Below are positions 32,394 to 35,655 of a stretch of 64,000 nucleotides of DNA, piece after piece. The stretch comes from Longimicrobiales bacterium. GTDB taxonomy: Bacteria > Gemmatimonadota > Gemmatimonadetes > Longimicrobiales > Gaopeijiaceae. The stretch spans positions 1-64,000 of the forward strand of contig CBDCKN010000009.1 of the NCBI GenBank assembly GCA_965218295.1. Reading direction: 5' to 3'. A program made the position numbers and the translations under genes. Under the pieces are notes generated by a model. That model saw only the letters and a program-made list of their open reading frames with translations. It was not told where the DNA came from and searched no databases. Numbering within the stretch: position 1 is the stretch's first letter; the number at the start of each line of letters is the position of its first letter.

Positions 32394-33650
32394 CTATATG
32401 GGACAGACCAGATCCCCCAGCTTCTCCGTCAACTTCATGTTCTCCGAGTAATCCACAGGGCAGTCGATGATCACGACGGTGTCGTCGGCGATGGCCTGCC
32501 TCAGCGTCGGCACCAACTCGTCGGCGCTTTCCACCCGATAGCCCTTGGCCCCGAAGCTCTTCGCGAACATCACGAAGTCGGGATTGTTGAAGTCGATGTG
32601 GCTGGGGCGGTCGAAGTGGCGCAGCTGATGCCAATGGATCAGACCGTACTCGCTGTCGTTCCAGATGAGAATGATGATTGGGGTCCCGATACGGAGCGCG
32701 GTCTCGATCTCCTGGCAATTCATCAGGAATCCGGCATCGCCCGTGATCGTTACTGCGGTACGGTCCGGGTGGACCAGCTTTGCGGCGATGGCCCCGGGCA
32801 CGCCGATCCCCATCGAGGCGAAACCGTTCGAGATGATGCAGGTGTTGGGGCGCTCGGCCTCGTAGAGCCGGGCGGTCCACATCTTATGAGCGTCCACGTC
32901 GCTGATGACGATGTCCTCCGGCCCGAGCACCTTCCGGAGGTCCCAAAGGATACGCTGCGGTACCATGGGGAACGCGGGGTTCTCCGCGTGCTCGGAGTGC
33001 TCCTGAAGGATGAGGTCTCGCAAAGCTCCAAGCTTCGGTTCGTTCTGAGGCTGCGCCACCTCAGCGATCCGCCGCAGTGACTCACCGATGTCGCCGATGA
33101 CCCCGGCCGCCAGCATGTAGTGCTCATCCACCTCGGCCGGCGTCTCGTCGATGTGTAGGATTTGGGCGTGTTTTTCGGGATGCCACAGATACGGATGGTA
33201 CTCGACCATGTCGTAGCCTACGCAAATGATCACGTCTGCGCGGTCGAATCCGCAGCTGACGTAGTCGTGGGCTTGCAAGCCCACGGTCCCGAGGCTGAGG
33301 GGGTGTGAGAACGGTATCGCGCCCTTGGCCATGAAGGTGGTCGCGACGGGGATCTGCAGCCTCTCGGCGAACGCCTGGAGCTGCGCCGTGCCTCCGGAGC
33401 GGATGACGCCGTTCCCTGCCATGACGACCGGGTGCTCCGCGCTCGAGATGATCTCAGCGGCCTGCTCGATCTTGGCCTCAGGGGCCCCGGGGGTCGTGGC
33501 CGCCTGCACCTTGAGCGGCTCCTTTCCTTCTACGTCGGAGCCGGCGATGTTTTCGGGAAAGGCGATGAAGCTGACGCCTGGCTTCTCCACGATCGCCTGC
33601 TTGAACGCCTTGCGAACCACCTCCGGAATGGTCTCCGGGTCCATGATCTG
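32394..33650 (-). pseudogene. ThDP-dependent acetolactate-synthase-like enzyme (2-oxoglutarate decarboxylase-like), N-terminus removed at the IS edge
   Basis: EVVRKAFK, SNGFASMG and GDAG...WND ThDP motif. Similarity stops at the IS inverted repeat (33651). Confidence 0.85.
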
Positions 33651-33700
33651 GGTAATTATATACCCCTTGCACGACAACTGCGGGTCAGTTAGCGTGGGGT

Positions 33701-34197
33701 ATGAATCTGAGAGGTTGGCTTGGCAGGCCATACACTGCGGTGTGTGGTCTCGCAATGTTCACGGGTTTGTTGGTCGATTTTCAGGGTGCGGCCTCCTAAG
33801 ATGTCCAAGGTCGTGCCTGTTCTTGCGGCGTTCCTCCCTATAATAGCTATAGGTGGAACGACGTTCTTTGGGCTTTGGTCAATAACGTCTATTTGGACGT
33901 TCCTTTAGGTCACGGCGCCCTGCTGCGAGGTTTGGAACATACTATCACACTGTGGTTCAATGCCGTGATGCCGCCAGGTTCGCGATGGAATGTTCCACGC
34001 ACAGTGCAGAACTGTATGCTGACTTGCGGCAACTTTCCGAAATATTGGGAAGGTTGGGCATAGAGTGTCCATCCGTATTCCCAGATGACCAGAAATATTC
34101 AAGCATATGGTTCGCCTTTCTGACTGAATTGAGCTCACTGGCTTTCCATGGAGATTTGACCAAAGCGCGCAGGCTAAAAAAGTTGATGTCCCTGTGA
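33701..34197 (+). pseudogene. Lower-GC IS passenger gene, probably a 2-TM protein with two frameshifts
   Basis: Segments MNLRGWLGRPYTAVCGLAMFTGLLVDFQGAAS, MSKVVPVLAAFLPIIAIGG... and SFRSRRPAARF...KKLMSL join if single bases are removed near 33796 and 33900. Confidence 0.45.
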
Positions 34198-34208
34198 ACA
34201 GACAGATG

Positions 34209-35117
34209 TTACGCGGCGGCTGTCAGCTCGCGGTACCGGAGGGCCTGGCCGTCCAGGAGACGGATCAGGACGGCCTCGAAGATGTAGGGGTTGTTCCGGT
34301 GGTTGATCCTGAACTCGACTTCGGACAGGTAGGCGTCCAGGTGCTTGGCGCTGACCTGGTGCCATGCTCCGACGATGGAGCGCTTGAGAAGGCTCCAGAC
34401 ACCCTCTACGCTGTTCGTGTGGACATCTCCGACCACCCACTCCTCTTCGGAGTGTTTGACCGTCTCATGGCGCGTGTCGTGATCGGCGATCCCGAGGTAG
34501 GACTTAAGCTCGTCGGTGTAGATGGCCTCGGTGTCGGACCGCGTGTTCCTGGCGATGAAGGCGTGGAGCGTGGCCCGCTTGATGTTGGGGACCACCTCGA
34601 TACGCACCTCGCCGCCACGCTGGACGGCTCCGGCGACCCACGTCTTGCCGACGCGGTTGCCGGTACCGACGCCGCGCCTCTTGCCGCCGACCAGGGTCTC
34701 GTCCACCTCGACCACGCCGAACAGGGTCGGCCCGCCCGAGAGATTGCCCCGCATGGCCGACCGGATACGATGGCACAGGTGCCACGCGGTCTTGTAGGTG
34801 ACGCCGATCGTCCGCTTGATCTGGTTCGCGCTGATGCTCTTCTTCGACTCGCAGACCAGGTAGATCGTTACGAACCACTTCCAGAGCGGAAGGTTCGTGT
34901 TGTCGAAGATGGTTCCCGAAGTAACGCTGAAGCGGTAGCGGCACCCGTTGCAGTCGAACTGGTCGCGGGTGCTGATCTCCGAGACGGACATGTCGCCGCA
35001 GCGCGGGCAAGCAACCGCCCCCGACCAGCGCAGCTTCTCAAGGTATTCGCGGCAAGTCTCTTCGTCGCGGAACTTTTCGATCAACGAAATCAGATTGATT
35101 CTGGAGGTGTCAACCAT
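34209..35117 (-). CDS. IS1595-family (ISXO2-like) transposase
   Basis: CPRCG...CNGC Zn ribbon, HTH with YKTAW, VEVDET, YTDE, HTNSVEGVWS and YLSEVEFR. Confidence 0.96.
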   Translation of the reverse strand: MVDTSRINLISLIEKFRDEETCREYLEKLRWSGAVACPRCGDMSVSEISTRDQFDCNGCRYRFSVTSGTIFDNTNLPLWKWFVTIYLVCESKKSISANQIKRTIGVTYKTAWHLCHRIRSAMRGNLSGGPTLFGVVEVDETLVGGKRRGVGTGNRVGKTWVAGAVQRGGEVRIEVVPNIKRATLHAFIARNTRSDTEAIYTDELKSYLGIADHDTRHETVKHSEEEWVVGDVHTNSVEGVWSLLKRSIVGAWHQVSAKHLDAYLSEVEFRINHRNNPYIFEAVLIRLLDGQALRYRELTAAA

Positions 35118-35262
35118 GGGTCATACCCGGCGTAAAGAGGACAAGCTACCGAAGGACGTAAGGCACCTAACGGGCGACCAGGTGATGGAGAAGTTGTTCT
35201 CTAAGAAAGTGGCTAAAGAACTGAAGAAGGTCGCCCATGAGAAGGGCCGGAAAGCGAAGTGA
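35116..35262 (+). CDS. 48-aa basic peptide inside the IS, divergent from the transposase
   Basis: GGAGGT SD at 35103-35108. Sequence MGHTRRKEDKLPKDVRHLTGDQVMEKLFSKKVAKELKKVAHEKGRKAK. Confidence 0.6.
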   Translation: MGHTRRKEDKLPKDVRHLTGDQVMEKLFSKKVAKELKKVAHEKGRKAK

Positions 35263-35321
35263 ATATCCATACACTGAATCTAATACAACCGGCCCTGCCG
35301 TGCAAGGGGTATATAATTACC

Positions 35322-35655
35322 GAACGGTGGCGTCTCCGACCCTGAAGACGTCGCCAATGCGCACCACCTCGTCTGTCAGGCCCTCGACGGTGAGGTTCTC
35401 TCCAAAGTTGCCGTAACGGAGATCGTCGCGCCGCAGCTCTTGCTTCCAGTACTCGTAGTAGTCGCCTGAATAGACATAGACCGCTTTATCCCGGCCGCCG
35501 TGCACGCTGAGGTCGGCCTGCCGATCCTCATCCAGGTTGAGCTCGCGCATCATCAGCGGCCCAGCCACGGGATCCTTGAAGATGCCTGTCTCGACTCTTC
35601 CGCCTCTGTACTCGACGACCTTCGGGAGCGAGACGTTCACTGATAGGATGCTCAT
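35322..35655 (-). pseudogene. Second MOSC-domain gene, 3'-truncated by the IS
   Basis: SVNVSLP, TGIFK, HGG.DKAV and FGENL. Ends at the IS IR before the QPRxPC motif. Confidence 0.88.

Follow-up and report, generated by a model that had tools for sequence, protein, structure and literature searches.

The window, a 64,000-nucleotide stretch of a Longimicrobiales bacterium contig, carries an insertion element whose parts are collected in Table 1. The transposase matches the IS1595 catalytic domain PF12762 (DDE_Tnp_IS1595, E=3e-35) and, at its N-terminus, PF12760 (Zn_ribbon_IS1595, E=6e-14), and it scores 192.7 bits against the IS1595 transposase model NF033547, for which the cut-off is 75. The terminal inverted repeats are 96% complementary over 26 bp, and the ends are identical in type across the five near-identical copies in the genome. 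By four tested features the element is an IS1595 family member; the likeness lies in a transposase with zinc ribbon and DDE domain, GG-starting inverted repeats, an 8-bp target duplication found at two of the five copies (C9:550177 and C1) and not at the window copy or two others, and cargo open reading frames. The excerpted text of PMC8101967 describes the family by the same type of transposase, by GG-starting inverted repeats and by a single transposase gene, with an N-terminal zinc ribbon in all groups but IS1016; the monophyly of ISNwi is not recovered in its tree. The present element differs from that description in that a second conserved gene and a leaderless upstream open reading frame (uORF) fill the transposase leader. 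A second element, present in two copies in the same genome, has a transposase 66% identical to that of the window element, and its small ORF, at the matching position, is 62% identical.

Table 1. Parts of the IS1595-family element in the window, from the left end to the right end
Feature	Position	Strand	Description	Basis or remark
IS1595-family element	33651-35321		bounded by 26-bp inverted repeat
Left terminal inverted repeat	35296..35321	-	26 bp, begins GG	holds predicted -35 box TTGCAC, 35305-35300
Predicted -10 box	35277..35282	-	TAGATT, 17 nt from -35 box	arrangement in nearly all 38 left ends
Leaderless uORF	35121..35270	-	49 codons, ATG 6 nt after -10 box	peptide not conserved
Small basic protein gene	35116..35262	+	48 aa, ends TGA at 35262	conservation and selection
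CCATGG	35114..35119	.	two start codons overlapping	CATG core alone recurs in relatives
Shine-Dalgarno of small gene	35103..35108	+	GGAGGT	in antisense of transposase codons 4-5
Transposase, IS1595 family	34209..35117	-	302 aa, zinc ribbon and DDE domain	family models
Variable cargo region	33701..34197	+	on small-gene strand; leaderless 32-codon ORF 33701-33799, 80-codon ORF 33955-34197	no family match
Right-end predicted promoter	33667..33695	+	TTGCAC 33667-33672, 17 nt, TAGCGT 33690-33695
Right terminal inverted repeat and inward predicted promoter	33651..33695	+	repeat 33651-33676	candidate antisense-transcript source

The transposase and the small gene meet head to head, with the transposase ATG at 35117-35115 on the minus strand and that of the small ORF at 35116-35118 on the plus strand; the GGAGGT sits 7 nt before the latter. 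An earlier note on this DNA had drawn attention to this start overlap and to the 48-aa Lys-rich ORF with its Shine-Dalgarno (SD) sequence, and all are confirmed in the window sequence. It had also described the SD of the small ORF as strong and that of the transposase as unclear, which holds in the window, where anti-SD pairing reaches -10.6 kcal/mol at the small ORF and -3.8 at the transposase start. That the small ORF fills almost the whole predicted transposase leader is likewise correct: 153 nt separate the transposase ATG from the predicted transcript start (35270), and the ORF spans 145 of them.

Does the small ORF recur in related elements, a test that the same note had proposed for what it called ISNwi1-group elements? 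An iterated HMM was run over 10,262 six-frame ORFs of the collected loci (135 with a transposase match, 115 of them non-redundant). It matches 45 loci at E<0.01, all upstream of the transposase and on the opposite strand, and the next best match has E=0.26; locus L019 joined the set by visual inspection and subsequently gave E=0.001. Among the 42 non-redundant loci with a transposase identity of at least 47%, 40 have the small gene (39 by the HMM and L019 by eye), and the two that lack it are without upstream DNA. For alignment, 41 elements were retained, four near-duplicates (L138, L128, L123, L052) and one extended form (L124) being left out. Beyond these loci, a profile search among 1.84 billion proteins gave 438 representatives (50% clustering) at E<=0.001. 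The ORF is thus conserved in related insertion elements, and it represents more than a chance reading frame, being both conserved and, as set out below, under purifying selection. The outcome that would have refuted the earlier note, an ORF absent from related copies or free of purifying selection, did not occur. The conservation indicates that it is a real gene, of an unnamed family.

What kind of protein would it encode? The window sequence has 12 lysines and 4 arginines to 7 acidic residues (D and E). Family traits are a Lys/Arg-rich arm, two predicted helices and the motif T-D-x-E-x-M-x-x-x-F-G/P-K; the basic arm and the motif are present in 137 short members of median length 54. Twelve close relatives are mostly of 47-48 aa, which supports the start of the small ORF. 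The names on record for 10 clusters that were looked up are 'hypothetical protein' or none. The window protein has no match in Pfam, NCBIfam or PHROGs; a weak Pfam signal, to DUF3683, appears in 8 of the 41 members (best E=6e-4). A sequence search of the PDB with the family gave nothing convincing (best E=0.75). Two predicted structures, of low to moderate confidence (pLDDT 69 and 61), consist of an extended arm followed by two helices, and a fold search with these low-to-moderate-confidence models returned a best Z of 3.5 (rmsd 3.3 over 47 residues) and nothing at Z>=5. No fused or longer form was found among 7989 candidates of 120-2000 aa, which is weak evidence; the longer profile matches come chiefly from ORFs extended upstream into DNA antisense to the transposase, and a 417-aa repeat protein among them looks unrelated. 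A plasmid collection gave no match to the small protein, and its best transposase match was 40%.

The start geometry can be followed through the 41 aligned elements. The CATG overlap is common (20 elements), a one-base variant (+1) is seen in four, and most others are offset by about +4 to +22. Of the start overlap, whose conservation the earlier note proposed to test, the CATG core recurs in this way and the six-base CCATGG is not conserved, occurring in 3 of the 41; as a conserved or functional signal shared by the two genes the palindrome is rejected. In the 24 overlap elements the small gene has an SD of -5 kcal/mol or better in 17, variable in position, and the mean pairing energy is above background (-6.1 vs -2.6 kcal/mol).

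Which of the overlapping frames is selected? In 14 disjoint pairs the small-ORF frame has a dN/dS of 0.26, which fits the purifying selection for which the earlier note had proposed to look. The value is 0.37 in the sense frame whose wobble positions coincide with those of the small ORF and 1.3-1.9 in the other four frames. Because of this sharing, dN/dS alone cannot separate the two low-scoring frames. Third-position transversions, however, track the degeneracy of the small ORF (42/175 vs 14/198, P=5e-6) and not that of the sense frame (33/230 vs 23/143, P=0.66), and amino-acid changes are conservative in the antisense frame only (mean BLOSUM -0.04, vs -1.15 in sense). These substitution patterns show the selected protein to be that of the small antisense gene; the degeneracy test and the BLOSUM comparison reject the sense uORF as the selected protein.

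The small gene is also tied to the transposon. In 401 genomes of the host phylum there are 29 matches to the small protein, in 12 genomes, a set that overlaps the alignment; 26 lie beside a transposase, two are at contig ends adjoining a left repeat, and the remaining one is weak, with no transposase in 8 kb. Two other phyla, with 401 genomes each, gave 24 and 11 matches, and removal of two loci already used left a second set of 33 loci with 30 distinct ORFs. These were found by the small protein alone, and an opposite-strand IS1595 transposase stands head to head with it at 27 of the 30; of the other three, two retain a left-end-like repeat but lack a transposase over 7 kb, and the third is weak. 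Identities of the small protein and of the transposase correlate (Spearman 0.58, 35 elements). In a quick, midpoint-rooted tree, each of the 29 members of one clade (support 99) has the gene; neighbouring branches also carry it, and a large Acidobacteriota group does not. The family extends over Gemmatimonadota, Acidobacteriota, Chloroflexota, Planctomycetota and Myxococcota in the same place and orientation. These associations support a link between small gene and transposon, and the related lineages without the gene imply that IS1595 elements generally do not need it.

Other ORFs occupy the same slot in related elements. A sister group (L054, L059, L086, L024, L063) has a different family of Lys-rich antisense ORFs upstream of the transposase, with the motif V-P-x-R-x-L-x-A-x-x-K/R-x-D-L/I-R and no score against the main family profile. 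Five more distant elements (L069, L023, L074, L067, L098) have leaders of 250-285 nt that contain a leaderless uORF together with antisense ORFs of 65-90 codons, which are unrelated to one another and start at the same CATG overlap. In L036, L014, L016, L013 and L125, extra DNA lies between small gene and transposase, with a clear ORF in four; at L036 and L014 it is the passenger start that the CATG overlap and the uORF stop now face, and a separate GGAG-type SD serves the transposase. Such intervening passengers count against the dosage model set out below.

How, then, is a transposase without a clear SD translated? A leaderless uORF over the same DNA, unremarked in the earlier note, could provide the explanation. 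In the window its TGA ends 3 nt before the transposase ATG. A generic promoter scan gave the left-end promoter no score (7/12 consensus matches); its arrangement recurs, however, in the left ends recognised in 38 of the 41 aligned elements, nearly all of which have a -35-like box in the left repeat and, 16-18 nt further in, a TAnnnT box. A start codon, ATG or GTG, lies 4-9 nt beyond the -10 box in 35 of the 38, and at exactly 6 nt in 27. The start opens a frame that crosses the leader in 32 of these 35 (16 expected), and in 31 of the 38 no more than 12 nt separate the stop from the following sense start, which it mostly precedes by 2-3 nt; among uORFs of at least 40 codons the proportion is 31/32, against a control rate of 0.21. 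Three different frames are used (20, 8 and 4 times, one element being counted with two starts), so it is the position of the uORF that is kept and not its peptide. In the second set, starts after the -10 box were seen in 21 of 22 elements, with an open frame in 19 of 21 (10.3 expected, P=3e-5); as the elements are related, the P-values given here overstate independence, and the repeated changes of frame carry more weight. A strict coupling test was passed by 15 of the 22. No selection against stops was seen in the wobble-sharing sense frame (11 stops vs 13 expected); the case for the uORF rests on its start and stop positions. The uORF is broken or absent in L045, L043, L125, L012 and L013, and ambiguous in L131. 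An SD-like stretch precedes the sense start in 11 of the 24 overlap elements, and coupling need not therefore be the sole route to transposase translation.

Leaderless arrangements are also seen outside the small-gene family. Of 56 loci without it, 27 have a detectable promoter; in 11, from more distant relatives, the -10 box is at most 10 nt from the start of the transposase itself, a coupled uORF is present in 6, and 10 are otherwise arranged. The host genome has a modest leaderless signal, with 21 ORFs each at 6 and 7 nt vs about 4 in controls, beside a dominant use of SD sequences. The structure of the leader RNA is not unusual (z=-1.2), and accessibility around the transposase start is only a little below that of the remainder (0.38 vs 0.43 unpaired, 35 elements).

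From where might the small gene be transcribed? No conserved internal antisense promoter was found within 450 nt upstream of the small gene in the 41 elements; a promoter-like site is confined to one subgroup, where it lies in the transposase gene at 44 nt from the start, and the best internal antisense site of the window scores 7.9, vs 11-20 for left-end promoters. The right end could be located for 20 of 38 elements. A -10 box is present in 12 of these, and in 8 the small-gene strand carries a leaderless ORF, in some cases of 100-340 codons. The window right end has its TTGCAC and TAGCGT boxes 17 nt apart and an ATG at 33701, and inside the element there is a single terminator-like site, at chance level. 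Read-through from the right end is on these grounds the leading candidate source of antisense RNA, though 8 of the 20 right ends are without a -10 box. Unstranded metatranscriptome contigs, mostly from relatives, cover parts of the element. Right-end cargo genes of 70-340 codons, lying 6-8 nt after the -10 box and driven from the right inverted repeat, are seen in L145, L136, L146, L044, L141, L125 and L048; several have hydrophobic N-terminal stretches.

These features can be joined in a model in which the leader is coded on both strands, and uORF coupling together with the antisense gene controls the dose of transposase; as a whole we give it an even chance. The control module proposed in the earlier note, with sense/antisense pairing over both start sites and a small nucleic-acid-binding peptide, is supported in part by the results above. 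Conservation establishes its first element, the -35-like box in both inverted repeats with a -10-like box inward. The left-promoter mRNA would begin at the uORF start codon and ribosomes would load leaderless, traverse the 150 nt and initiate anew when they reach the transposase ATG, a sequence of events that we regard as quite probable. The excerpted text of PMC8459731 states that leaderless mRNAs have AUG or GUG at the 5' end of the transcript and that even short added leaders strongly reduce initiation; by this token read-through transcripts would not be translated, and incoming host transcripts, which do not start at the uORF codon, would yield little transposase. On the other strand lies the gene selected at the protein level. 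The layout makes any transcript of the small gene complementary to the transposase start and to the entire leader. Antisense transcription could originate at the inward promoter of the right end, by read-through from the host or, in the one subgroup, at the site inside the transposase gene, and its RNA, pairing with the uORF and the transposase start, would block coupling; we lean moderately towards such transcription and interference. Last, and least supported of the steps, the small protein might act in trans as a brake on transposition, likely by nucleic-acid binding, the basic arm binding end or promoter DNA or the leader RNA. Whether it is a brake, rather than a helper or a passenger, we judge to be evenly balanced. 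A predicted complex of transposase and small protein had a score of 0.00, which gives no answer and is neutral either way. The coupling site may in addition serve as a slot for the capture and expression of passenger genes.

With the same anatomy, the small protein could instead be a positive accessory factor, with a part in transpososome assembly, the bending of end DNA or target choice. Such a role would suit its retention throughout the clade of 29, the purifying selection on it, an identity that tracks that of the transposase, and the different Lys-rich small ORF kept in the same slot by the sister group. The gene is, however, antisense to the transposase mRNA, so that the two would likely be expressed in opposition, and related IS1595 lineages do without it; we consider a helper role rather unlikely. 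Could the small gene be a long-retained passenger that acts on the host, with the uORF a spacer ferrying ribosomes over an inserted cassette? Variable cargo is acquired at both ends of these elements, more distant ones carry unrelated antisense ORFs with long leaders and the same CATG overlap, and such an overlap results whenever C precedes ATG. Unlike cargo, the small gene is constant in family, place and orientation over five phyla, and the few examinable matches away from a transposase keep a left-end-like repeat or are weak, which makes the passenger explanation distinctly unlikely. It is also conceivable that the small gene is real and the sense uORF a relic or by-product, the transposase using its own weak SD. 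The wobble-sharing frame is usually open anyway (31/41 vs 29 expected by synonymous resampling), and some elements do have SD-like sequence before the transposase. Yet the spacing of 6 nt between the -10 box and the uORF start codon is tightly maintained, the two frames that chance rarely leaves open account for 12 of the 32 long uORF starts, and the stops of these long uORFs lie beside the next start far above the control rate; a relic is on this evidence improbable. That the sense uORF is the true coding gene and the Lys-rich ORF its antisense shadow is effectively rejected, for the low apparent dN/dS of the wobble-sharing sense frame is outweighed by the degeneracy test, by the conservative changes in the antisense frame and by a uORF frame that varies among elements while the antisense motif is constant.

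The model of a two-strand leader has parallels in known control systems. Translational coupling, in which a stop codon lies next to a downstream start, is well known, and the element resembles it and leaderless initiation in having a start codon at the predicted 5' end of the transcript and a stop beside the downstream start; the difference is that here a spacer indifferent to its peptide crosses an antisense gene and feeds the transposase. A spacer of this kind would tie transposase translation to the element's own promoter. IS50 Inh and IS1 InsA are second proteins, encoded by the element and proposed to limit transposition, and both are same-strand truncated forms of the transposase. The likeness to the present proposal is in a second element-encoded protein with a proposed limiting role, whereas the 48-aa protein is unrelated to the transposase and comes from the opposite strand. 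RNA-OUT of IS10, which acts on RNA-IN, and art200 of IS200 are, in the excerpted text of PMC4513863, non-coding antisense RNAs from a dedicated promoter. By analogy, the antisense transcript proposed here may have a similar mode of action; it differs in that the antisense strand encodes a selected protein and in that the 450 nt searched in 41 elements yielded no conserved promoter dedicated to it.

IS1595 elements are the bacterial relatives of eukaryotic Merlin transposons. To our knowledge their regulation has been little studied, and the elements have been described as single-gene. Full-text literature searches, whose coverage did not extend to the founding 2009 description of IS1595 or to ISfinder, found no such module, and the two-strand leader is real, conserved and apparently undescribed. 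It offers a testable design of control, with a small-protein family of hundreds of members and a near-complete two-strand overlap maintained across phyla. Leaderless initiation would be a possible means of ignoring read-through transcription, and symmetric end promoters with leaderless starts suggest a route for the expression of captured cargo.

Several observations concern the copies and their surroundings. At the window copy (flanks 32394-33650 and 35322-35655), which is without a target duplication, the genes on both sides are cut: an acetolactate-synthase-like gene is 5'-truncated and a MOSC gene 3'-truncated. No second copy of either flank was found in the assembly, and the cut flanks likely stem from adjacent deletion or from recombination between copies. 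Two related elements stand back to back, about 1.7 kb apart and with diverging transposases, at L129 and L138 (G304:C2:2673847-2677275). The copy at G000:C1:75582-77151 is split by a 1.57-kb insertion sequence of two ORFs, IS3-like by appearance, of which this genome has dozens of copies that are 90-100% identical.
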